Made by a program: the position numbers and the translations under genes. The notes beneath the pieces are model-generated. The model did no database searches, was not told the DNA's origin, and worked only from the letters and a program-made list of their open reading frames with translations. Of a stretch of DNA of 64,000 nt, positions 5,480-57,568 are shown piece after piece. Source of the DNA: Folioceros fuciformis (taxonomy: Eukaryota); the NCBI GenBank assembly GCA_049999805.1, contig JBNGIO010006303.1, forward strand, positions 17,895-81,894, written 5' to 3'. Every line of letters starts with the position of its first letter. The first letter of the stretch is position 1.

Positions 5480-6130
5480 GTTCAGATGCTCGTCTTTGTC
5501 GCTTCTCTTCAAGCTGCGCTGAAGTGGCAAAACATCACAGTGCCTGGTGAACATGGTATGTACTGCATAGGCTACATGTGGCGAACTCAAAGATGCACGC
5601 CAGGCTTTGGAGAAAAGGATGTGGTGACGTGGACGGCGCTGATTGCTGGACTATTTGTAAACAGCAAGGGCCTGGACAAGAGGCGCTGTTGTGTATGAAC
5701 CAATGGAGCAAGAAGGCCTGATAGTGGCTCACCATGTTACTGTTGCTTGCCTTCTGAGCCTGTGAAAGCGAGGCGTCCTGCAGAAGGGCAGGTATCTGCA
5801 CTCACAGACTGTGGAATGAAGACAGCTAGGTAACATACGAGTGGGCAAATGGCTGCTGGATAGATATGTAAAGTGTGGCGAATGGGATGTGCAAGCGATG
5901 TTTTTGAAAGCATGGCCAGAAAGGATGCGTTGTCCTGGAAATTCCAGATTGTAGATAATAGTGCATTCAATGCATCTGCATTCCCACATTGTTAAAGAGG
6001 ATAGTCGCTACTGGATGACATACTGGTGAGCAACAGTCTGGGGGACATGCCTGCAAAATTTGGTGAACTGAAAGACGTATGACAGACTTTTCACAGCTTG
6101 GTTACAAAGAACGTGCTAGCATGGACCTAC
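5480..6130 (+). pseudogene. Degenerate PLS-class PPR gene fragment
   Basis: PPR motif remnants in shifting frames with stops: EKDVVTWTALIAG, VFESMARKDALSW, VSNSLGDMPAKFGELKD, FHSLVTKNVLAWT. Confidence 0.7.
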
Positions 6131-7142
6131 CTACAGATGTATGTCAGCTGATTGTTATGCGGTGGTCTTTTGGTTAAGCGTACACTCCAGGTGCAGTTTC
6201 AGGTGACACTGTTCGGAGTTGTTGTTACTTGTTCCTGGTTCTGCCTGCTTGCCACCACATTAAGGTGACCTGATGCTAACTGCAGACACCGAGTGTAGCC
6301 AACCCAGAAAATCTGCCTGCAGTTGCGTCCTGGATTGCCATGGACGTCAACCCAGCGCAAGGGATCTGCAAGTCTCATCAAATGAACAGACATTCTCTCT
6401 TCTCAAACTGAAAATTCACAGATGGGGAACATCTCACTGTTGGGGGTCTTGCTGCGGTGTGTGGAACCGCATCTCACAATTTCAGTGTTCCAGGACCTCT
6501 GAATTGAGAGACTGGCCACTGCTCAAGGTTCCGTGACTACGCAACACCATACCGAACCTCATGGACAGTCCGTTGCTGTAACCAGCCTGCCCGAACTGAG
6601 CCGTTGCACGGGCTTCCTGCTGTTGCCGCGTAGTGGCCTTCACGGTTCGCGATTCCGTTATTCCCTACCGAGGAACTCCTTTTCCAGTCAGAGCACCTGC
6701 AACACGATGTACAGTACAGTACACTCAGCCTTGCATCTCTCAAATAATATGCACGTGACACAGAAAGCGCGCCTGCCAGGCCCTGCTTCTGGTGGAACAC
6801 TCAGTCGGGCCAGAACACGTGGTACCACAGGTTCACAACGCACAGTAACTCAGCAGCTCCAATAATTGAGGCTCCAGAGTCCGCAACAGCCTATGGATTC
6901 CACAGGGCAAACTTGAAGTGTACATACTGTATTACCGGCACAGATAAAGATTCCCGCGAAAGTCTATTTCCTTCAAAACGTCTCTCTACACACACGAACG
7001 TCACTAAACGCTCCATGTCGGCCTGTCCGGAGACACGGACCGCCTTCCAGATGCTCACACTCTCATTCTCTTTGTAGAGTACATACATACTGTAGCTACA
7101 TCTTGTCGTGCCCTGACCGGAGACCATGCAGATTCGCATCCT

Positions 7143-21816: not shown

Positions 21817-24678
21817 CTAAAACGCACTCCAATCAAAGGAGGGTTTGGTTGTCTGTCCTCCTGGACCTTGCCCCGCAGTTGCACCAAATGGCCCTGTCCC
21901 CGCGAAAGGATCATCATCAAACGATCCAAACTTCTGGCGAGGATTATCTTTCGCGCTGCTGAATGAATCAAAGCGCATGAAAGTCTCACGGCTGGTATCC
22001 GTGCGTGCAAACGTCTTGACATGAGCAGGGCTCTCTGTGAACAGAGAAGTTCCAAAAGTACCACCAGCAGAACTGTTGAAGAAGTCGCTCTCATCTTTTG
22101 AAGAAGCAAATGACGTGAAAGATCCAGCAAAATTATCTGCCAAGGAATGTCCGTTGCCATGGTCAACCCTGCCTGGACTTGAAACATCCGAAGATCTGAT
22201 GTCTACAGGGGAGTCACCAAAAGCATCGAAGGTTCTTGGAGTGGGAGGCCCCACAACTTCCTTCTCAACAGGCTCTGGATCAAACTGATGCCGGTGAGAG
22301 AAGAGAGTGCTCTCAGCCACACTTTTTGGAGATCCATCCTCACTCTCAGCTCTGAAAGACCCACCAGTTGATGATAACTTCTCAGAAGCAGCGACGTGCG
22401 CACCATTCTCTGGCAGCTTTGAATCAGAAGGGAACTCAAAGCCATCATCGAAGAAGGTGCCGTCATCCCAGCTGATAGGTGCGCTTACATTGGTCGCAGC
22501 TGGAACAGGAGGAACAACATGGTTCTCTTCGATCTTGTCAGTTAGTTCCTGGCTTGGGGCTTCATCCACAGGCGTAAAACCCTCATCGTCAAATTTATCC
22601 CAGTCCTCATCCCACTCAGCCGCTGTCTCCTGAAGACCAGGCTGCCATCCAAACGGTGGCTCGACAGCCACAGAGGACTTCGCCTTCAAACCTAGGCGTT
22701 TAGCCCGCTCAGTGAAAGCTTTTCTCAATTCATCCAAATCCTGTGAGATGCGATCTGCCTGCTTCTGCAGTAGGACATTCCCATCCCCACCCTGGTCCAT
22801 CTTTGCAATAGCATGGTACAGATCCATCTTTCTTTGCTGTAAGTCTCGAAATGCAGCCTCTTCTGCTAGCAAACGAGAGTGAGACTCTCCACTTTGCTTA
22901 AACTTCTCATCGTACTTTTTAGACAGCGCCTCAACCTCCCGCTTGTCTGACGCAGCTCTCTCCACAGTTTCTGCCAGCCGGTTGTCACACCGAGTCTTGA
23001 AAAGTATGATCTCCTGCAACTTGGTCTTGTAAAACTCCATCTTCTCCTTGGAGTCCATGATGTCCCTGTCCATCTCGTAAGCCTTCTTCTCGGCATCTTC
23101 AGCCTCCTGATGCTTCGTCTTGAGTGCCTCCTGCTCATCTTTGTGCAACTGGGCAACTAGATGTGGCTCCAGAACCGGAAGTTTCGACTTGAACGCCCCC
23201 GCTTTGTCGGCCTCTGGAGCCACCACAGGACGCTGCACCTGAGGCTGGACAAAGCCTGGACCCTGCTGCTCAGGTCCAACAGACACCTGAGGCGGAACAA
23301 GGCCCGGAGCCCGCTGCCAAAGGGCCACATTATATCCTCCTGATTGATGAGACATCACCTCCTGTGCCTCAGCAACACGTTTAGCTGCTATTGATTGCCA
23401 CTCATCAGTGGCCGGCTCGTCCAAATGAAACCCAGGAGGCAGAACGGGTGGAATAGGCCGACCCTCCCTCCACCGATCCATAAGATACAGAGCCGTACAG
23501 AACTCTCTGAGCGACAGCATGCTGTCTCCATCCTGATCTGACAAGTCCCATACCTGCTTCAACACCTCCCTAGGCAGCTGCCAGCTGAGGAAAAGGTCTC
23601 GAGCCTCTGTACCGGATATTTTCCCATCCTTGTCCCTATCCACCACAGCAAACACCTTAGAGTACCGCTGCTTATCAGCCTGAGTCATCTTCGGCCAAGG
23701 GGCGGACGTCGGAGGAGGACCAGCCGTTGCAAGGGCAGAGCTAACCTCAGGAGGCCTGGCCGCAACACTTGGAGCAACAGTCCCGGACCCGGCCTGAGTA
23801 ACTGCTGGCGTAGTGGGAACAAGAGCAAGGCCAGCTTCCGCCTGGAAGGTAGACTCCCCGAAAACAGCTGCAGTGCTGCTCGCCTGCGTCTTCTGCTGCA
23901 CGGGTGCTGCCACAGGCTTCACAGAACTCGTGCTCAGAGGATCCAAACCACGCGACGGCTCGGAAGATGAGCCGATGCTGGTCGGAGTCACCTTAAACCC
24001 TGCCCCGGAAAATGCATCTAACGTATCCAAAGAAGGAGCAGAAGCTGCTGGCTTCCCCTGGAGAGCATTTCCACCGCCTCTCGGACTCGGGAGTTGGCCA
24101 CCCGCTGCAGATCCAGGCCCCNNNNNNNNNNNNNNNNNNNNNNNNNNNNNNNNNNNNNNNNNNNNNNNNNNNNNNNNNNNNNNNNNNNNNNNNNNNNNNN
24201 NNNNNNNNNNNNNNNNNNNNNCCCCTGCCCCTACTCTCAGCTGGCCCGGAGGAGGAGTCAGAGGCACAGGACGTGCAGAAAAACCAGGTGAAGGACTCGG
24301 ACCATAACTCTGCGGCTGCGGCTGCTGGGGCTGCTGCTGGGGCTGAGGAGCCAAGCCACCTGCAATACCGCCGGGAGCGGCTATCTTCGGAGGAGGAATC
24401 TGCGCTGCTGCAGGTCCGGCCAGAGCCGCGCGCACAATTTCATACGATAGCTCCCGCCCGGTCTGAGCCACCGTGACGAGCTTGAGAGCATTGTAGAATT
24501 CCGGCCTGGACAGAAACCCCCGCTGACCCTGGTCCGCAAATTGCCAAATCTTGGCTAGCGTCGCCTGCGGTAGATTGGCTCCCTGGAAGAATGCCACAGC
24601 CTCATTGCCGCTGATCTGGCCATCTCCATTCAAATCGGCTCGCCGGAAGTAGAGATCAAACACCTCCGGGTTGGCCAT
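21817..24678 (-). CDS. EH-domain (Eps15 homology) endocytic adaptor, AtEH1/EH2 (Pan1-like, TPLATE complex) homolog
   Basis: Two EH domains (FRRADLNGDGQISGNEAVAFF..LAKIW; WPKMT..DRDKDGKISGTEAR..LKQVWDLSDQDGDSMLSLREF), a coiled coil, WDEDWDKFDDEGF and the C-terminal WSAF. Uninterrupted ORF apart from a 100-N gap. Confidence 0.92.
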   Translation of the reverse strand: MANPEVFDLYFRRADLNGDGQISGNEAVAFFQGANLPQATLAKIWQFADQGQRGFLSRPEFYNALKLVTVAQTGRELSYEIVRAALAGPAAAQIPPPKIAAPGGIAGGLAPQPQQQPQQPQPQSYGPSPSPGFSARPVPLTPPPGQLRVGAGXXXXXXXXXXXXXXXXXXXXXXXXXXXXXXXXXXGPGSAAGGQLPSPRGGGNALQGKPAASAPSLDTLDAFSGAGFKVTPTSIGSSSEPSRGLDPLSTSSVKPVAAPVQQKTQASSTAAVFGESTFQAEAGLALVPTTPAVTQAGSGTVAPSVAARPPEVSSALATAGPPPTSAPWPKMTQADKQRYSKVFAVVDRDKDGKISGTEARDLFLSWQLPREVLKQVWDLSDQDGDSMLSLREFCTALYLMDRWREGRPIPPVLPPGFHLDEPATDEWQSIAAKRVAEAQEVMSHQSGGYNVALWQRAPGLVPPQVSVGPEQQGPGFVQPQVQRPVVAPEADKAGAFKSKLPVLEPHLVAQLHKDEQEALKTKHQEAEDAEKKAYEMDRDIMDSKEKMEFYKTKLQEIILFKTRCDNRLAETVERAASDKREVEALSKKYDEKFKQSGESHSRLLAEEAAFRDLQQRKMDLYHAIAKMDQGGDGNVLLQKQADRISQDLDELRKAFTERAKRLGLKAKSSVAVEPPFGWQPGLQETAAEWDEDWDKFDDEGFTPVDEAPSQELTDKIEENHVVPPVPAATNVSAPISWDDGTFFDDGFEFPSDSKLPENGAHVAASEKLSSTGGSFRAESEDGSPKSVAESTLFSHRHQFDPEPVEKEVVGPPTPRTFDAFGDSPVDIRSSDVSSPGRVDHGNGHSLADNFAGSFTSFASSKDESDFFNSSAGGTFGTSLFTESPAHVKTFARTDTSRETFMRFDSFSSAKDNPRQKFGSFDDDPFAGTGPFGATAGQGPGGQTTKPSFDWSAF
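24122..24221. other. Assembly gap (100 N)
   Basis: Run of N. Confidence 1.
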
Positions 24679-25235
24679 GGCCGGCATGGGAAGGCCGCAA
24701 CCCCTCCGCCCCTAGGAGGTCAAACGAGGGAAGCGGAGACACCGTAAGACCGCAGGCTGCGATACAAAGACACCCGGATCTGCTCCCCTCCTGAGACCTC
24801 GATGCGTCAGGGTTTCCGTTTCGCATCCATCTCCTCCTGCTCCCAGCTGAGCACACTGTCCCGCCAACACGCAGCAGGGAAGTATCGTGACGCCACTCCC
24901 CCGCGTTTCGCGAGCTTTTTCATCCAGAACGAAACGAGTTAGTCTACCACACGTTCGTCGCCCTAGGGCAGCAAACACATTTCACTTCACGCAACGCAGT
25001 ACGCAATAGGTAGGAAGAAGTTGAAGCAGCCAGCATCTGTTCGTACGCCCGTTGAGTCGAGTGAGAACAGAGCTGGACTCGATGGCAACGGGAATCGGAA
25101 TGGCAACGGAATGAAAGCGCCAGATGCGCGGTAACATTGAAACTTCTAGTAAGGAAAAACGGTGGGAAAAAAAGCCCAAGCAGAATGAGACAACCAAAGA
25201 CGGCCACGATTGGTTTGGTTGTAACGGTCCCACTA

Positions 25236-27782: not shown

Positions 27783-29400
27783 ATGGTGTGGTTCCAGTGC
27801 GAGGATTGCGGAGAGAGTTTGAAGAAGCCGAAGCTTCCGAACCATTTCCAGAGATGCTCTGCTTGGAAGGTGAGTGTTCGTTCTCCAGCTCGGGCGGCGT
27901 CGATGCGGTTGCAGGTGATGCGGTTTCGGATGATGCTGCATTCTGCCTGACCGGGGATTGCGCGGACTGGCAGCTTTCCTGCATCGACTGTGGAGTGGTC
28001 TTCGATCGACAGAGTGTCCTGCTTCACACCTCATGCGTTACAGAAGCGGTAGGTATCGGATTTTATGTCTTCGGAGGGATTGGCGCCCAGGGGTGTGCTC
28101 ATCTGCTGAGTTTCGTGACCCTGCTCAGGAGAAGTACGGTCCCAAAGGTGTGCCCGATGCGTCTGGACAGAAACCGAAGACTGGATCTATGCCAAGTTGT
28201 GAGGAGAGTGTGAAGCGTGGTTTGTCAACCAAGGCACCATGGTCATGCAGGTGAGTGTTAGTTGTTCTCGTTATCTTACTTGCAGTGTAGGGGACCTACT
28301 CTGGAGTGTGTGCTCGTCGTGTTGATTTTGTTTCGCTTTGTTGTAGCTTGTGCAAGATCACAGTATCGAGTGAGCAAACTCTACAAATGCATTCTGAGGG
28401 GAAGCGACATATGAGGATCTTTAGGGCTGCCCTTGGGAACGGCGCGGTAATGGCTGCCTCCAAGGATCTAACGGGGCGGAGTCCAAAGACCAATGCTCCT
28501 GCGGTGGATGCGACTAAAGTGTCTGAAGTTAGTCCCTCCGTTTTACCTGGGGATGAGACTGAGAGGGATTTAGGGTTTCAGAGCAACGAAGATGCAGTTG
28601 AAGGAGAGCAGGAGAGTGGGAAAAACTGCAAGAAGAAGAAGGAGACGACGCTGAAAGAAGAAAATCACGGACAAAATGGGGAGGCCGACAACGGCACCAA
28701 AGACAGCGGTGCTCACCTGGGAAACAAGAAGGCAGGGAAGCAGAGCAAGGCTGGGAAAGTCAAGTCTAGTAAGAAGGAGAACGATCCGCAATCCACGGGT
28801 GTTGATCCCACAGAAAGTGATGGGAAGAAACAGTCGGGCAAGACATCAAAGAAGCGGAAAGAGCACAGCAATGGGGCTGGTGATCAGAATTGCAAGGATC
28901 CGTCCAAGGACCCTGTTCTAGGTGGACAGAAGAAGAAGAAGAGGAAGACGTTGGAAGTAGAGAAGGACAGGGGAAACGGGGTGGCCGACAAGGCAGTCAA
29001 AGACGGCAGTAGTGGTCTCGGAGACGACAAGTCAGAGCAACAGAGTCAGGCTGATGAAGTGCAGGCTAGAAAGGAGAAAGATAGAGTGCAAGCAAAAGGC
29101 ACTAATGTCGTATTGGATAGTCGGGAAAAAAAGAAAAAGTTGAAAGTGAAAAATGAGAAGGAAGTTGGGCCGGTTGGCAAGGCGATCGAAGAAAGCAGTG
29201 GCAGTCTGGGAGACCTCAAGCCAGAACGGTCGAGCAATGCTGTAAAACTCGAGACTATTAAGACGGATATTGGGAAGAAAGAAGTAGGGAAGATATCGAA
29301 TAAGCGAAAAGAGCATGGCAGTAGTGCCGATGATGATGCCAAGGGTCCCCTGAAGGACCATCAAGGTGTGAAGAAGAAGAAGAATAAGCTTCAAGAGTGA
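27783..29400 (+). CDS. LYAR-type C2HC zinc-finger nucleolar protein with a U1-type zinc finger and Lys-rich tail
   Basis: [47 protein letters not shown], then [19 protein letters not shown]. Four exons. Confidence 0.88.
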
Positions 29401-42729: not shown

Positions 42730-43193
42730 CCTCGTGAACGTTCGGAACAGACCCTCCTGGGTTTGGCTGTGAAGAGCTAGTTGAGGGCTTACTATTTGCA
42801 GTTGAAAGCATAGTTATTCTGAAAGGGACCACCTTGAAAGGCTTTGTGGTGGATTATTGCTCTCCACAAGGTCAAGCATTTCTGTAAAAGTGGCCATAGA
42901 ACTTAAGCGGAATTTATTAGTACGACTCCCAAGTCTTCTTTCCAAGTTCTCGTTCTCTGGTAACGGTAGCTCTTGACACTGCAAGATCGCAAAGACTGTC
43001 CAGCGAAGAAATGAGGTGGGTTGAGTTCATCGTCCACAAGTAGGCGGCCAAGCAAGTATGGACCTCGGACATGCATGCAACGACTTGTCCGACCAGGTCA
43101 CTCTTGGGGGAGCTGCTTCTCAGTTCTTGTTCTTGGCATTGGGCACATCATCTACTCCATCTACTCCGCAGGTTCGATCAGTGACGAGGGAGG

Positions 43194-44597
43194 ATGGCAG
43201 CCAAACTCCGAGCCGTGATTTGGTGGACACTTCTGATTGCCATGGTGCTGTCATCCTTGTTGCTGCAAGCTCCTCTCTTCCTGCGTAATTGGCCGGTGGG
43301 CAACGCGGCCTGCGTGTGCAACAGCGGAGCTACCAACTGCGATGCAAACTTCGCCGAAGAGCAGAGGCCGCAGCAGCAACAATTCTATGCGCACGGGACG
43401 GCGCACTACGGGTTTGTCCAATTCGGCGCATACCGGCAGTCCCCTCGCACCTTCTTCATCGTCGGCATCACCTCGGTGGCTGTGCGGGACTACACACCTC
43501 CGGTCCAAGCATGTGAGTGGAAGAGCAACGGAGGCGGCAGCGCAACGGCACCCGCAGAGATAATCTACATCGGCTTCGACGAGAACGGGGCCCTGTTCGT
43601 GCCGGCCATCGTCAACTGCTCGTTCCCAGACCCGGTAGGCGGAGACGGACTGGGAGGCGAGCTCTCCATCCAGCTCCCTGCGGGAGCGCGGGGAGGGAAG
43701 ACAATCACGGTGCTGGCAATGGCGGAGGAGCGCGGAGCAGCGACAAGCTTCTTCCACTCGCCGGCTCCCCGGCTGGCGTATGCCTTCTGCGGGCCGCCGA
43801 TGCATTCGGAGGTGCGGGCGGAGTGGATCCTGCACTGGCTCGTCTACCACCACGCCCTGTGGCAGCAGCAGGCGCACTTCTTCTTCTACAACGTCGGGGG
43901 GCTGAAGCCGCAACAACGCCGCCTCTTCCTACCTTACATCCGCGCCGGAGTGCTCACCATCACGGAAGTGGCGCGGGAGGCAGACTTCCCTTCTTGGTAC
44001 TACCAGCAGCCGCTCCTGGCCAACGACTGCCTCCACCGCTCCCGCTTCCTGGCGGACTGGACCTTCTTCCTGGACTTCGACGAGTTCCTCCACGTCCCGG
44101 CACCGGCATCCCTCCCGGCCCTTCTGCTCCTCCACCGGCAGGCCCCCTGGATCTCCTTCGGCAGCCTCCCCGTCTCCCACAGCCACTGCCTGGACACCGG
44201 CCCCGATCTTTGGCCCGTGGAGCGCATGCAGTGGAGACACAGCGCGCCGGAGTGCATGCATTCGGACAAGGATCCCTGGACCTGCGTGGCGGCCCCCGGG
44301 AGAAGGAAGTACGCAGTGAATCCCAGGGCGGTATTCGCAGCCGGTGTGCACAGGAGTGCGCTACCGGAGGACGGAGGAGTGGATTTGAACGCGTCCGTGG
44401 CCAGGATCCACCATTATCACGGCGTGCTGGCCCCGCAGGTGGAGCTCTGCCACCACCATGTGAACGTCTCCCAACCCCTGGAGCACTTGGATTGGCTCAT
44501 GCCAGGCTTCGCCAATTACGTTCACGACCCGGAGCTGGCCGCGCTGGTGTCGGCCGCCCGCCGGGCTTGGCTTTCTTCCAGACCCGGCCGCAGCTGA
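43194..44597 (+). CDS. Glycosyltransferase family 92 / DUF23 (galactan synthase GALS-like), type II membrane protein, intronless
   Basis: N-terminal transmembrane segment, FVQFGAYR, YAFCGPPM, WLVYH, WYYQQPLLANDCLHR, FFLDFDEF (DxD), RKYAVNPR..GVH and HHYHG. Confidence 0.88.
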   Translation: MAAKLRAVIWWTLLIAMVLSSLLLQAPLFLRNWPVGNAACVCNSGATNCDANFAEEQRPQQQQFYAHGTAHYGFVQFGAYRQSPRTFFIVGITSVAVRDYTPPVQACEWKSNGGGSATAPAEIIYIGFDENGALFVPAIVNCSFPDPVGGDGLGGELSIQLPAGARGGKTITVLAMAEERGAATSFFHSPAPRLAYAFCGPPMHSEVRAEWILHWLVYHHALWQQQAHFFFYNVGGLKPQQRRLFLPYIRAGVLTITEVAREADFPSWYYQQPLLANDCLHRSRFLADWTFFLDFDEFLHVPAPASLPALLLLHRQAPWISFGSLPVSHSHCLDTGPDLWPVERMQWRHSAPECMHSDKDPWTCVAAPGRRKYAVNPRAVFAAGVHRSALPEDGGVDLNASVARIHHYHGVLAPQVELCHHHVNVSQPLEHLDWLMPGFANYVHDPELAALVSAARRAWLSSRPGRS

Positions 44598-48254: not shown

Positions 48255-48327
48255 GGTCGCGTGGCCTAATGGATAAGGCGCTCGCCTCCGGAGCGGGAGA
48301 TTGCGGGTTCGAGTCCCGCCGTGATCG
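48255..48327 (+). tRNA. tRNA-Arg (CCG)
   Basis: 73 nt. Acceptor stem GGTCGCG/CGTGATC, D-arm TGGCCTAATGGATAAGGC, anticodon arm CTCGC-CTCCGGA-GCGGG, T-loop GGTTCGAGTCC, with T-runs downstream. Confidence 0.95.
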
Positions 48328-50050: not shown

Positions 50051-50456
50051 CTGGACTTCCACTCGTGGTCGAGAGGTACACCATCTAAAGTGACCTGATA
50101 GATATCTAAGTACAGTGCGTATGATGTGCACGGATACGAGTACATACAGTATGAAGTAAGTATGTATTTTGGAGAGAGGAGAGTGGTGTGATACGTAGTG
50201 CGATGGAGGCGGCCCCGAGCTGGGTGTGATGTACAGTACAGCAAAGTGAGCATCCATCAATTGTTGCCGTAAAAAGAATGCCAAGACGGGCCGGGCCGCA
50301 TGGCGATGTCCAAACGTCAATAAAAGGAAGGCGATCGCTCAGGCTAGAGCTGAGGCTGAAACAGAGACGGAGGGGGCTTGATGATCCTTCTGCTCTCCCG
50401 GAGGCAAGCACCGATGCGGCAGAGTTGTTGCATTGGCGGCATCGCAGCTCGGCAAG

Positions 50457-51923
50457 ATGCTGAAATGCATTCGCATTCGCTCGGCCACGAGTGGCAGCGG
50501 CAGCGGAAGCAGGTCCAAATCCTTCCAGAAGACGGTGGTTCTGAAGCCCTTGCGGCTGGGCCGCCCGGACGTGGGATGCTGCGGGGAGCTTGCGGTGGCC
50601 ACCAGCTGCCAGGACGGCATCTCTTGTTCCACCCCGGGATCCAGCTCCACCTCCAGCTCGGGCTGCCGCGATCCGGCCCTGGGATGCCGTGATCCGGCCC
50701 TGGAATGCCAGTGCCCGTCCCTCAACTCCCTCCCGGACGAGGTGTTGCGGGAGATCCTTGCCCGGGTTCCACTCCCGCCCCTGCTCCCGCTCCGGGCCGT
50801 GTGCCGGGCGTGGGATCGGCTGATCCTGGAGGACGCGCGGGTGGAGCTGGTGGCGGGATCCTTGGGAGCCAGCTTCCTCCGCGCGGTGCACACCCGGGAT
50901 GGGAAGATGCTGGCCCTGGCCTACAACCCCGTGCTGCGGGTGGCGGCCAAGGGGCCCGTGGCGCTGCATGCGTCCGCGGTTGATTTTGGCCACTTCATCG
51001 CCTCTGCCGGGAGCCTGCTCTTCTACGGGAACTTCAACAACTGCGCCCCGGTGTGCCGGATCACGGTCTCCAACCCGCTCTCCAACGCCTGGCGCCGCCT
51101 GCCGCTCCTCGCGGACGGGCCAACTCTGCTCTCCTTCCCGGTCTTCCGGCGGATCACGGTCTGGAGCACCGGGGAGGTCGGGGCCCGGAGGAGGGGGATG
51201 TACCGGATCTTGGTGATGAAGTTCAGATGGCACTTCCAGACTCACATCTACTGCTCCATTGCGGATTCCTGGCGGCCGTGCCCGAGTATTCCCCTCTGCG
51301 GCTACGATTTCTTCACATCCACGGGCCCCTGCGTTGGGGGATTCGCCTTCTATGTGGTGGGGAGCAGTATTCGGGATGTGAAGTCGTGGTCCATCTGGGC
51401 GTTTGATCTCGAGTGCGAGGCCTGGTTCAACTTCACGGTGCCCACCACGATGCTGGACGGGGTGGTATCCTATGTACTCATCGAGTGTTTGGGGAGGCTT
51501 GTGCTGGTGGCCAGGTGCGGGATTGTGGATTGGGAGAAGAGGTGCATTCATCTTGATGGGGTGCGCTTGTGGAAGCTCAGCCTCACAAGGAAGAGGAATG
51601 GGTCGACCGATCCCGGGAAGACGCTGGCTGGGCACTCGTGGGCGAAGCTCGGGGAGATGCCACAGGAGTTTGTCCCACTTTACTCGTTGTCCTTCTCTAA
51701 ACGTCATTGGTGGCATCCCACCCTGGAGCTCAAAGACTGCACAGTGGTGTCCAATTGCATCTTTTTCCTCAAAGGCCGCAGCCACGGAGCGGATGCTATC
51801 GTGTTTGATTACATTGATAAGTCCTGGAGTGTGCCGGACAGGGATTTGGTCCATCCTCCTCGAGGCTGCCGGATGTACGACCCCGGATTCTGCCTCATTC
51901 CCAATGCCGATATCATGCCTTAG
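50457..51923 (+). CDS. F-box protein with kelch/FBA-like C-terminal domain, intronless
   Basis: F-box LNSLPDEVLREILARVPLPPLLPLRAVCRAW, then AYNP, VSNPLSNAWRRLP and AFDLECEAW. Confidence 0.88.
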   Translation: MLKCIRIRSATSGSGSGSRSKSFQKTVVLKPLRLGRPDVGCCGELAVATSCQDGISCSTPGSSSTSSSGCRDPALGCRDPALECQCPSLNSLPDEVLREILARVPLPPLLPLRAVCRAWDRLILEDARVELVAGSLGASFLRAVHTRDGKMLALAYNPVLRVAAKGPVALHASAVDFGHFIASAGSLLFYGNFNNCAPVCRITVSNPLSNAWRRLPLLADGPTLLSFPVFRRITVWSTGEVGARRRGMYRILVMKFRWHFQTHIYCSIADSWRPCPSIPLCGYDFFTSTGPCVGGFAFYVVGSSIRDVKSWSIWAFDLECEAWFNFTVPTTMLDGVVSYVLIECLGRLVLVARCGIVDWEKRCIHLDGVRLWKLSLTRKRNGSTDPGKTLAGHSWAKLGEMPQEFVPLYSLSFSKRHWWHPTLELKDCTVVSNCIFFLKGRSHGADAIVFDYIDKSWSVPDRDLVHPPRGCRMYDPGFCLIPNADIMP

Positions 51924-53447: not shown

Positions 53448-54409
53448 ATGGCGCCCGTTCGCGGCCAGTGCTGCGTTCCTCCGCCTCACTCCGATTACAA
53501 GGGCGTGGGAAGGGAGGAAGTCTGGCCGGAGGAGCGTTCCGTCTACTTGACTGGCTCCCCAGACGCTAAATCGGCTATACTGTTCGTGTCCGACATCTAT
53601 GGTGGAGCCCCGTCCGCTGATCATGGCCGAGTGGAGGAGTGGCTGAAATGGCTGACATGATGGATGCAGCGCTGCTTGTTGTTCCATAGCGAGCTTCACG
53701 ATGGCAGTTTCTGACCGCCTGGACGTTGCACATTCTTGCTTGCGCAGGATGGGAAGTGCCTCAGAGCAGACAACTGGCGGACAAGATTGCCGCCTCGGGA
53801 TATTTCGTCGTACTGCCGGAATACCTCGACGGGGATCCTTACAAGGTGACGAACCCAGACGACGAGTACGACGGCCTCTGGCCGTGGCTGGAGAAGCACT
53901 CCGTGGAAGCTGATCGAGAAAAGATACGCAAGGTGCTGGACCATATCCGCTCGGAGTACAGCTTCAAGGGCGTGGGAGTGGTGGCCTTCTGTCGGGGTGC
54001 CAAGATTTCCATCCCGTTGCTGCCCGATGATGAGGCGGTGCAGGCTGCCGTCTTTTGCCATCCCTCTTTCATCACCTTTGAGGAAATCAACGCAGTAAAG
54101 GTTCCGCTCTCGATTATTGCACCGGAGATTGATATCGTCATCACGCCGGAGGAGAATTTGGCGTTCGGCAAGGCCCTGGAGGAGAGCCCGCTCGTCTCCC
54201 TCAGCAAAGTGAAGGTGTACAAAGACGCCGAACACGGCTTTACCACACGCTACTCCGATCTGGACCCGCCTGCTGTTGCCAGGGCCGAGGAAGCTCACCA
54301 AGATCTCCTGGACTGGCTACACCTCACCTTGCCTCGAGCACCAGAACCAACCATTGGAGACAAGTTCCAGCACCTTTCTACGACCGACGACGACAAGGTC
54401 CAAGTGTAG
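53448..54409 (+). CDS. Dienelactone hydrolase family alpha/beta hydrolase (plant endo-1,3;1,4-beta-glucanase-like)
   Basis: Exon 1 encodes QCCVPP..AILFVSDIY. Exon 2 encodes GWEVP..LADKIAASGYFVVLP, the nucleophile motif AFCRG, EID and HGF. Confidence 0.88.
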
Positions 54410-54627
54410 GGTACAGTACAATCCTTATCTTCCTTTTAGAGGACGGACGACCATGTACTTTGCAGAAAAGTACCTTTTTCAGGGTGTCGCTGCACGCAAA
54501 CGATCCGTGCGGGAAATATGTACGATATTTAATTTTTTTTTAAAAGTGCACCTAAGCTGTCATGATTTTTGTGCGACGTTGTCGTAGTGCGATGTTCCGC
54601 TTGCTCAGGAATCAATTGAAATAATTG

Positions 54628-57568
54628 TCACCACTGATCTCCGCATGTACACGCGCCGTTTACGAAGTGGTGATAGCAGCTTGGATCCCTGACAAGAATT
54701 TGACGTTTGACTATTTGGGAAAGGGACTTCAAAGCATTGTGACAGTCCCCGCACACTCTAAGATTCTTTGCTATGCGAATAGTTGTCCCGGGGGGTGTGT
54801 TGATGAGCGCGAAGGCAAGGGCTAGCTTTTCGGCGTGGAGGTGCAGAGGCCTTTCCCTTTCGTCCTCGTCGGCGTCATGTAGCACAACACCTGAGACGGG
54901 GGCATCGTGCCCTGCTTCCTTCAGATACCCCCATAGGTTGTTCACACTAGAGTAGATCTCTTGGGACTGAGGGTGGGACTCATCGCCAGCGGTAAATTCG
55001 TGCACCTTCTGGTTGAACTCGATCGAGCACACGGCGGTCTCCTTCCTGGTGCCGTTCATTACCATCAGCTTTCTCACCCTTGCCTCATCATCCCACCTTT
55101 TCAGATAACCGTAAGTGTTGGCTAGCATGACGTAAGGGGCTGGGTCCTCCTTGTCTATGGCGAAGAGCTTGTCTGCAGCGATTTCTGCCAACTCTATGGC
55201 TCTGTGGTAGCTACAAGCCTTGAGCAGAGCCATCCAGACTCTAGAACCAGGGCGGCCTGGAAGATTGAGGATGAAGTTCTCCGCAGCTTGAAATTGCCTA
55301 GCTCGACCAAGGAGGTCAACCATGCAGGCGTGGTGCTCCTCCTCTGGACTGATGCCATAGTCAGGAGCCATGGACTCATACAACTTTTGGCCCTCCTTCA
55401 CCATACCCAAGTGTGCATATACTCCCAGGGCCGCAGCCAATGCTCCCCGGTCAAGGTCCACTTTTTCCTGGAACAACTGCTTCAAAAGGTCGAGTGCCTC
55501 GCCACCGAGTCCATGCTGGGTGTATGCCGCCAACATCGCTGTCCAGGACACACAGTCCTTGCTTGATAGCTTGTCGAACACCTGGCGAGCATCCTCTATA
55601 CTCCCACACTTGGCGTACATATCTACCAGGCTGTTTTCGATGAAGATGTCAGGGAGTAACTTGCGTTCGTTGATTAGGGTATGGACCTGCTTACCATGCT
55701 CCAAGGCAGCTGCATCTGCACATGCACTAAGAACAGAAGGAAACGTTTTGAATGTCGGCTCAAACTTCTCGTTTAACATCTCCTGGTAAAGCAACAATGC
55801 CTCTTTGCCCAGCCTACACCTGGCATACCCTGTGATGATTGAAGTCCATGAAACAACAGTCCGCTCCTTCATTCTGTCAAAGATCATGCGTGCAGTGTGT
55901 ATGTCCCCACATTTGGCATACATGTCAATGAGAGAATTGACCACGAGTACATCTCCTTCATATTCAGCATTCATGATTTTGGTGTGCATTTGCTGTCCCA
56001 CATCCAGAGCACGTATGCTAGCACAAACATTGAGGGAAAGGACAAAAGTCACCCTGTCGGGTTTTCCACCGCCCTTTGTGAATGCTGTAAACAGTCCCAA
56101 AACTGCTCTACCCCGTCCGGCCGTCATATACCCTGCAAGCATTGCGTTCAATAGTACAACGTCCGGCTGGTTGACACTGTCAAATACTTGACGTGCGCTT
56201 TCTATGCTTCCACATTTGGCATACATGTGGACGAGTGCACACATGACTGCTCTGTCGTTCCCAAATCCACGTCTTTTAATGTCATCATGTATTCGCCTGC
56301 CAAAGTTACGAGTTGAACATGCCATCAGGAGCTGGACATACGCCTGTGAATTCATAATCACACCTTGTTCTTGCATTTTCTGAAAAAGGTGAGATGCCTC
56401 CTTTTCGATCCCATTCTGAGCATATCCAGCAATAATCGTTGTCCATGACAGCAACTGGTGTGCTATCATATTGTCAAAGATGTCACGAGCATCAGATACG
56501 CTCTTGCACTTGACATACATGTCGATGAGGGAGTTCTCCAGCAGAGTATCCAAGACCACGCCACTGCTGATGATATGAGCATGAACTTCCTTCGCCTTCT
56601 CCAAATCAGCCAACTCAGCACATGCCTTCACCATCACAGTTCCCAAAATCTTGTCAGGCTTTACACCTTCTGCCACCATGTTCTGATAGACTTTAAATGC
56701 CTGCTCGCCAAGTCCGACATTGATATAACCCTGAACAAGTGCACTCCAGGAAATGACGTTCTTGTTCCTCAATTTGTCGAACAATTTTTGGGCTTCCGAC
56801 ATCTGTTCACAACTGGTGTACAGCCGGACAAGGTTGGTACCGAGAAATAGCGTCGTCTCCCAACCACGTCGCACAATGTGAGCTCGGACCCGCTCACCCT
56901 CAGCTAGAGACTTCGTCCTGATGCAGTCCTGCAAGAGAGAATCATAAACGTCGTTGTTCACTCGAACCCCTTGCTCCGACATAATATCCAGAAGATGCAG
57001 AGCCTCCTTCAACCGACCCTCTCTGCAGAATTTCCTCAACTCTCCAGAAGGCCCAGGGTCAAGTCTGGAACTTGGAAACCTGTGAGAACGAAGCACACTA
57101 ACCGCAAAATTCAGGCTTTACTTTCCAGCCTACAGTCAGAGCCTCAAAGCTAACAAATCGAGAAGAACGACAACCTGCCCTGACGCCGGGTTGAGCTCTC
57201 AGCATCCAAGGCCCGACGCCCTGTTTCCACCACCACGCCAGAGTCTCGTCGTGAGGACGAAGACTCCTTGCTCATACCTCGCCAGTCCTCACTGTGTAGG
57301 ACCCGACAGAACCCCAAGAGGCTTGACATCTGCAATTGTAAAACATCTGAAAATGCGACGTCACGCAAGATTCCCCGACCTAGCTCGGTTGGCACCAGAT
57401 GACGCCGCCGAAATGAGGTAGGCTCACCTTATGGAGATGACCATTCCAGCTTTCCAGAATAGCTCCCTCAAAGCCACCTGGAGAGCAGCCAGCATTGGCG
57501 GCGGGACTGTACTGGCGCAGCACATGCTTGAATCTGCTCCTCAAACCTCGGATTGAGCTGGTCCCCAT
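54628..57568 (-). CDS. PLS-class PPR protein with E1-E2 and a variant DYW deaminase domain (ends DQW)
   Basis: Exons 57568-57428, 57329-57175 and 57079-54628 are phase-compatible and give 915 aa. About 17 P/L/S repeats, HAEKLA and CGDC zinc motifs, and an Arg/Ser-rich N-terminus resembling a targeting peptide. Confidence 0.93.

Follow-up and report, generated by a model that had tools for sequence, protein, structure and literature searches.

A Divergent DYW Deaminase Domain of Probable PG-Type Descent in a PLS-Class PPR Gene of Folioceros fuciformis

The PPR-DYW Gene at the Locus

The stretch of DNA analysed here (the window) comprises 64,000 nucleotides of Folioceros fuciformis (assembly GCA_049999805.1, contig JBNGIO010006303.1, positions 17,895 to 81,894 of the forward strand), and the subject of this study is a gene on its minus strand that encodes a pentatricopeptide repeat (PPR) protein with an unusual C-terminal DYW deaminase domain. 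The open reading frame, P0001, occupies 54628..56982 and holds 784 codons, closed by a TGA stop codon at 54628..54630. Its translation matches the Pfam families PPR_2 (E 3.6e-61) and PPR (E 6.4e-56), with E_motif, Eplus and DYW_deaminase towards the C-terminus. When drawn by eye from the canonical motif lengths, the architecture reads L1-(S1-P1-L1)x4-S1-P2-L2-S2-E1-E2-DYW and fills residues 10-784 exactly; PLS triplets followed by P2-L2-S2, E1, E2 and a terminal DYW domain constitute the arrangement of PLS-class editing factors. The PLS-type PPR array (residues 10-579) lies at 55246..56955, as delimited by eye with the help of the Pfam PPR families and the comparison with an ortholog. It is followed by the E1 and E2 motifs (residues 580-647, 55042..55245), each taken as 34 residues long and matched by E_motif and Eplus, and by the DYW domain of 137 residues (residues 648-784), which was placed at 54631..55041 on the basis of the Pfam and Protein Data Bank (PDB) matches and an AlphaFold2 model. 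The first-pass annotation, made from the letters alone, had given the domain as 54628..55060, which takes in the stop codon (54628 being its final base) and some residues of E2; 55060 is out of register with the codons by one base and falls six residues ahead of the domain. Searches of the 64-kb window by tblastn with two PPR-DYW proteins revealed no second PLS-DYW gene.

The stretch also occurs in two public runs from this organism. One of them, X3, comes from another sample and another study, and the other, X1, is a DNA run that may be the source of the window itself. One contig from each shows no differing letters over the DYW domain, and one X3 contig is colinear over 54612-56903 without a mismatched letter. 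The identity of these contigs indicates that the unusual codons are not an error private to the window assembly; an assembly error as the origin of the HAE and DQW motifs described below is ruled out, as the contigs of the second sample agree with the window.

Another X3 contig jumps 57080-57174 and 57330-57427, a pattern as in spliced RNA. Both gaps are bordered by GT..AG and correspond to minus-strand introns of 95 and 98 nt, respectively. The last exon (54628..57079), supported by both the colinear and the spliced contigs, holds nearly the entire coding sequence; it is preceded by an exon at 57175..57329 that opens with an ATG (57329), and by an upstream exon at 57428..57503, up to which the X3 contig reaches and which may represent 5' untranslated region or more coding sequence. 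Further low-depth contigs extend to 57900. Because the spliced contig adds two 5' introns and the ATG exon, translation does not start from the ATG at 56982. The spliced coding sequence has 868 codons and one stop only, the terminal one; another in-frame ATG in the first exon, 47 codons upstream, may be the true start. The first 60 residues of the spliced product include 13 Ser and 10 Arg, as is often the case in organelle presequences. The gene is nuclear and spliced, it is apparently transcribed, and we infer a product of about 868 residues that would be targeted to an organelle.

Fold and Motifs of the DYW Domain

The domain scores 122.7 bits with the DYW_deaminase model PF14432, for which the cut-off is 24 (E 5.6e-36), and the protein matches PDB entries for the consensus PPR-DYW protein (9kfx, E 1.8e-63), OTP86 (7o4e, E 8e-37) and DYW1 (7w86, E 1.3e-35). 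An AlphaFold2 model of the last 205 residues, computed from a 45-sequence alignment, reached a mean predicted local distance difference test (pLDDT) score of 91.5, and the block formed by the first two beta-strands, the PG-box region, scored 92-96. A Foldseek search with the predicted model returned 9kfx_A (E 2.7e-22, template modelling score (TM) 0.88, root-mean-square deviation 2.7 Å) as well as 7o4f, 7o4e and 7w86. The deaminase fold with its inserted helix and gating region is found in the predicted model. A protein atlas search retrieved generic DYW/PPR clusters only.

Every motif that the first-pass annotation had listed is present in the minus-strand translation: RKETAVCSIE (residues 646-655 of P0001), GDESHPQSQEIY, EAGH, HAEKLA, CGDCH, RDPSCYHHF and CGDQW, the last directly followed by TGA. 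The PG-box equivalent KETAVCSIE (55018..55044) has Thr-Ala for Pro-Gly, Cys for Ser5 and Ser for Trp6; the preceding Lys, which is the last residue of E2, is kept. The xHP tripeptide is retained as SHP (54970..54978). The active-site motif HAE (H716-A717-E718, codons CAC GCC GAA, 54829..54837) carries Ala, instead of Ser, between its zinc-binding His and catalytic Glu. The stretch KNLRVCGDCH (54739..54768) carries the active-site Lys, the base-stacking Leu, the Val seen in PG domains and the zinc-binding CxxC (roles according to PMC13324415 and PMC7611903). Alignment to R595 and F596 of 9kfx indicates that RDPSCYHHF (54664..54690) has Cys for Arg and, conservatively, Tyr for Phe, and a His that serves as a ligand of the second zinc site lies within the motif as well. 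The protein ends in DQW (54631..54639).

None of the residues described as essential in the published studies is lost: the domain has the Lys ahead of the PG box, the His and Glu of HxE, the base-stacking Leu, the active-site Lys, the CxxC motif and the H..C.C of the second zinc site, and at its end the Trp and the Asp, the latter together with the Lys that it pairs with. For comparison, DYW domains were pooled from the fetched homologs; 400 had a complete tail and 391 of these were non-identical, the pool being biased to relatives of the query. Residues H69, E71, C97, C100, H124, C131 and C133 (domain numbering) occupy columns that are invariant in 391 of the 391 domains, in agreement with the first-pass view that the HxE and CxxC zinc ligands are intact.

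The altered positions differ in how rare they are in this pool. At position 2 of the PG box, Pro occurs in 288 domains and the Thr of the window in 10; at position 3, Gly in 343 and Ala in 29; at position 5, Ser in 345 and Cys in 5; and at position 6, Trp in 225 and Ser in 75. The box is thus naturally variable, the Pro being missing in 103 and the Trp in 166 of the 391 domains; proteins of the moss Ceratodon among the homologs have canonical PG boxes. The His that replaces the Tyr of the GY motif (Tyr in 367) is found in 10 domains, and the Cys that replaces the Arg of RD..RFHHF (Arg in 382) in 4. Two states are found in the window alone: the Ala of HAE, at a position occupied by Ser in 383 domains, and the Gln of DQW, where the pool has Tyr in 330, Phe in 44, His in 11 and Ser in 2. 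The window domain is the most deviant in the pool by a small margin, and none of its deviations affects a ligand.

The Ortholog and the Order of Changes

The homolog search covered a collection of 5.8 billion proteins and 1.84 billion cluster representatives, and it yielded one clear ortholog, P0002, a protein of 822 residues from a Logan assembly. Its full-length identity to the window protein is 55%, compared with at most 44% for the others among the matches listed. Over the last 225 residues the identity is 59%, the next match, from Ginkgo, having 51%, and over the DYW domain alone it is 60%. Both proteins have the rewritten box (KETAVCSVE in P0002) and RDPSC. P0002 differs from the window in having HSE, GY and DYW. 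Its alignment to PG-type domains is gap-free; the window has one private Asp inserted after GH that is absent from P0002. The ortholog has peculiarities of its own, SHR for SHP and CGSCH for CGDCH. Neither protein has lost a zinc ligand, the catalytic Glu, the base-stacking Leu or the Lys of the active site.

As the altered PG box and the Arg-to-Cys replacement are common to both orthologs, they are older than the species split. Conversely, since P0002 has HSE, GY and DYW and no insertion, the HAE, GH, the inserted Asp and DQW belong to the window lineage only. Judged from these two sequences, this ordering is the opposite of what would be expected of a relic intermediate.

The pair formed by position 5 and the last residue is identical in 7 of the 11 P- and S-type PPR motifs of the orthologs, including the uncommon pairs NT and AG, despite an overall identity of only 55%, which suggests a conserved RNA target. 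Starting at the N-terminus, the pairs of the window protein read TN, SD, NQ, TN, CD, ND, NT, TT, ND, TD and AG. In E2 the corresponding residues are the canonical V/K in both proteins. The L2 motif is among the least conserved between them (39% identity), a value in line with a possible remodelling of the contact between PPR tract and DYW domain.

Assignment to a DYW Subtype

The classification of DYW domains into PG and KP types reportedly goes back to Gutmann et al. 2020 (Molecular Plant). DYW:KP domains occur in hornworts, lycophytes and ferns, are represented by the designer proteins KP1-KP7 and are linked to U-to-C editing. In one published account their definition includes the KP dipeptide, Ala or a different hydrophobic residue at the central position of HxE, and an altered C-terminal end (PMC11332814). 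Another describes xHP as residues missing in most KP domains, gives DRH and GRP as the ends of hornwort KP domains, and reports Met where PG domains have Val95 (PMC9478123). The length of KP domains is given as 132-133 residues (PMC11845758), the outcome of a deletion of 3-4 residues. The first-pass annotation had named HAE as a KP state, the lack of SHP, and DRH and GRP as KP variants; the papers bear these statements out, HAE being described as conserved in DYW:KP and the loss of xHP as applying to most of the group. A full-text literature search for KPAxA, which that annotation had given as a KP motif, returned no relevant paper.

Out of five KP features derived from these papers, the window domain exhibits one, the Ala of HAE. 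It reads Lys-Glu-Thr-Ala where the KP dipeptide would stand, keeps SHP and has 137 rather than 132-133 residues, carries Val in KNLRVC instead of Met, and retains D and W in its terminal DQW, unlike the DRH, GRP or, in KP6, F of the KP domains. As far as the published descriptions go, what it has in common with DYW:KP besides this Ala is a box without Pro-Gly or Trp and the conserved Lys of the active site.

The PG features are also incompletely represented. Pro2-Gly3-x-Ser5-Trp6 is replaced by Thr-Ala-Val-Cys-Ser, and HSE is absent from the window, though present in the ortholog P0002. The xHP and the length of about 136 residues are those of PG domains, the 137th residue being the private insertion, and the C-terminal triplet keeps D and W with Gln in place of Tyr; OTP86 itself naturally ends in DSW. 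Compared with PG-type proteins as a whole (OTP86 7o4e/7o4f, moss PPR56 and 9kfx), the window protein has the same succession of PLS array, P2-L2-S2, E1-E2 and DYW, a domain length within one residue, and the same xHP, HxE, KNLRVCxDCH, second zinc site and terminal D and W; its identity to 9kfx is 54% over the last 203 aligned columns. It differs from them by Thr-Ala, Cys5, Ser6, HAE, the interface Cys, the Gln within the DYW triplet and the insertion after GH. The DYW:WW domains, a hornwort subclade described as editing C to U, also have 137 residues, and since the window domain owes this length to an insertion missing in P0002, the match is probably a coincidence.

A FastTree phylogeny of the 391 domains, none of them KP or WW, groups the window with P0002 (support 0.997); with midpoint rooting, this clade is surrounded by PG-type domains at a depth of 15 nodes. 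The nearest neighbours of this clade, with a moderate support of 0.84, are short gymnosperm PPR-DYW proteins. These neighbours (P0394, P0405, P0406 and P0409, from Araucaria, Cryptomeria and two more sources) have about 500 residues and no E motifs, and their PG-box stretch is replaced (aligned KPP----TP) in an otherwise canonical domain. No KP or WW sequences were found among the 458 homologous proteins fetched. The HxE..CxxC signature was detected in 357 of 386 proteins; 342 of them have HSE, the window alone has HAE, and none looks KP-like. A separate search with the HAE region gave 101 proteins, of which 72 were new, 71 with HSE and one with HCE. The best reading of these data is that the domain is not of the KP type but PG-like by descent.

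Effects of the Altered Residues in Characterized Proteins

Residue numbers were transferred through alignments to 9kfx, OTP86 and DYW1. The Ser of HSE is described as contacting O2 of the target base, and the OTP86 variant S893A is reported to have a minor effect (PMC13324415); another account words the result of this substitution as a decrease in activity (PMC9478123). The Tyr of the DYW triplet, Y609 in 9kfx, is reported to face outward to L2-S2, and Y609A to lower editing only slightly. The Tyr-to-Ala substitution in DYW1 is likewise reported to have no effect. By these published assays, the changes private to the window, HAE and DQW, would be mild.

The structure of OTP86 suggests a further role for two of the altered positions. 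S828 (Ser5 of the PG box) and S893 (the Ser of HSE) are described as forming hydrogen bonds to Lys915, which fix the Lys at the catalytic Glu while the enzyme is inactive (PMC7611903). Both of these tethering serines are replaced in the window, by Cys5 and Ala70. With both serines replaced, the enzyme may be regulated differently, and its docking to the PPR tract may be remodelled.

The two positions can also be followed in the pool. Three of the 5 domains with Cys5 are also without the Ser of HSE, namely the window (Ala) and the near-identical P0132 and P0136 (Gly), and this Ser is missing in only 5 of the remaining 386 domains. P0132 and P0136, with KEAGVCRIE and HGE, belong to an unrelated clade, and their tree neighbour P0220 has Cys5 together with HSE. 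If Cys5 and HGE in these proteins are the same pair of changes, the two lysine-tethering positions would evolve together; two independent events at most make this a hint, nothing more.

Activity and Editing Direction

We favour, with modest confidence, the interpretation of the window protein as a divergent C-to-U editing factor that is probably active. In an ancestor of PG type, an older step would have rewritten the PG box from Pro-Gly-x-Ser-Trp to Thr-Ala-Val-Cys-Ser and turned the interface Arg into Cys. Later steps, private to the window species, would have added HAE, GH, the insertion of one residue and DQW. The protein would still convert C to U at a single organellar site, and its autoinhibition may be weaker and the docking of the domain altered.

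Several observations weigh against this interpretation. The Arg replaced by Cys corresponds to R595 of 9kfx, which is reported to bind the backbone of the L2 motif; R595A is said to leave about 30% of the activity, and the equivalent change in OTP86 less than 50%. In moss PPR56, the PG-box substitution P2A is reported as far costlier than G3A, and a change of Lys to Arg after the catalytic Glu as lowering editing (PMC10482289). At the latter position P0002 has Leu (HSELLA), where 388 of the 391 domains have Lys or Arg, so that constraint on catalysis may be loose in the orthogroup. At the 36 columns conserved in at least 90% of the pool, the window domain shows 5 deviations, the highest count among the 391 (median 1, 95th percentile 3), and P0002 deviates at 3. 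The clade of the two proteins sits on a long stem (0.433), and the tree was built without KP or WW domains, so that the nesting among PG-type domains rests on midpoint rooting. The label of X3 as RNA is a guess backed solely by the GT..AG-spliced contig, no run being recorded as RNA.

Some of these observations lend weight to the main alternative, that the protein is a non-editing RNA-processing factor, whose PPR tract would still bind a conserved organellar RNA and whose DYW domain would be kept for folding, docking or another activity. It would explain the deviation count, the change of the PG box and of the interface Arg in both orthologs, and the missing Lys or Arg of P0002, and it is not without precedent. 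The moss protein PpPPR_43 from Physcomitrium, described as needed for splicing of cox1 intron 3, has a DYW domain distinct from those of the other nine moss proteins, and CRR2 is described as requiring its DYW domain for RNA cleavage (PMC9459714). By this description, PpPPR_43 resembles the window protein in combining a full PLS-E1-E2-DYW architecture with a DYW domain that departs from those of proven editors (PMC9459714). Nevertheless, both orthologs retain the zinc ligands, the catalytic Glu, the base-stacking Leu and the Lys of the active site, the fold of the window domain is predicted with confidence, and in natural PG-type domains the Pro, the Gly or the Trp of the box is often missing; we consider this alternative rather unlikely. 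A former editing factor that has lost its target and whose gene now drifts towards decay would be consistent with the five deviations and the long branch. This is improbable, as the spliced frame of 868 codons is intact, the spliced contigs of another sample match the gene, none of the 8 metal and catalytic residues is lost, and the PPR position-5/last-residue pairs are the same in 7 of the 11 P and S motifs across the orthologs.

The first-pass annotation had regarded the domain as an intermediate between PG and KP types or a separate subclass, leaving its editing direction open; such a domain might edit U to C, or both ways as does the designer protein KP6. HAE is indeed a KP state that only one of the 391 pooled non-KP domains exhibits, and both serines that bond the active-site Lys in OTP86 are gone, a Lys on which U-to-C editing by KP proteins is reported to depend and which PG domains conserve as well (PMC11845758). 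In KP6, moreover, small substitutions are reported to shift the balance between the two directions. However, four of the five KP features are missing and P0002 has HSE, GY and DYW; the Ser/Ala position is described as not decisive for the editing direction, the HAE/HSE swap not discriminating between the reactions (PMC9478123). The proposal of a transitional subclass is accordingly poorly supported, and U-to-C or two-way editing appears very unlikely. Equally remote appears a variant in which a PG-descended domain lost the Ser-Lys tether, by the change of Ser5 to Cys and then of the HSE Ser to Ala, and the freed Lys would make it an unrestrained C-to-U editor or permit U-to-C editing without the KP-type deletion.

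If the protein is the divergent C-to-U editing factor that we favour, it adds one more lineage-specific DYW variant to the thousands in seedless and seed plants. It would nonetheless constitute a natural tolerance test, in which a box without Pro, Gly and Trp, HAE, an interface Cys and DQW are placed on an otherwise intact enzyme. The absence of both serines proposed to restrain the active-site Lys is also of relevance to the engineering of PPR-DYW base editors. In the unlikely case of U-to-C or two-way editing, neither the KP deletion nor the KP motif would be needed for the reverse reaction.

Neighbouring Features

A gene of the dienelactone hydrolase family (53448-54409, plus strand) converges on the PPR gene; its open reading frame at 53690-54406 matches Pfam DLH with E 5.9e-19. 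Just past the stop codon of the PPR gene, at 54300-54562, lies an X3 contig with a much higher depth of 78. Other long open reading frames at 50385-51923 (plus), 21817-24711 (minus), 43185-44597 (plus) and 28291-29400 (plus) encode F-box, EH/EF-hand, glycosyltransferase family 92 and C2H2 zinc-finger proteins. The surrounding genes are ordinary nuclear content, and the guanine-cytosine content of the window is 42-56%. The sole Rfam match in the window is a single tRNA gene at 48255-48327 on the plus strand (RF00005, 61.5 bits). A weak PPR-like tblastn match at 6008-6133 on the plus strand (E 6.7e-06, 45% identity over 42 residues) is possibly a fragment of another PPR gene.

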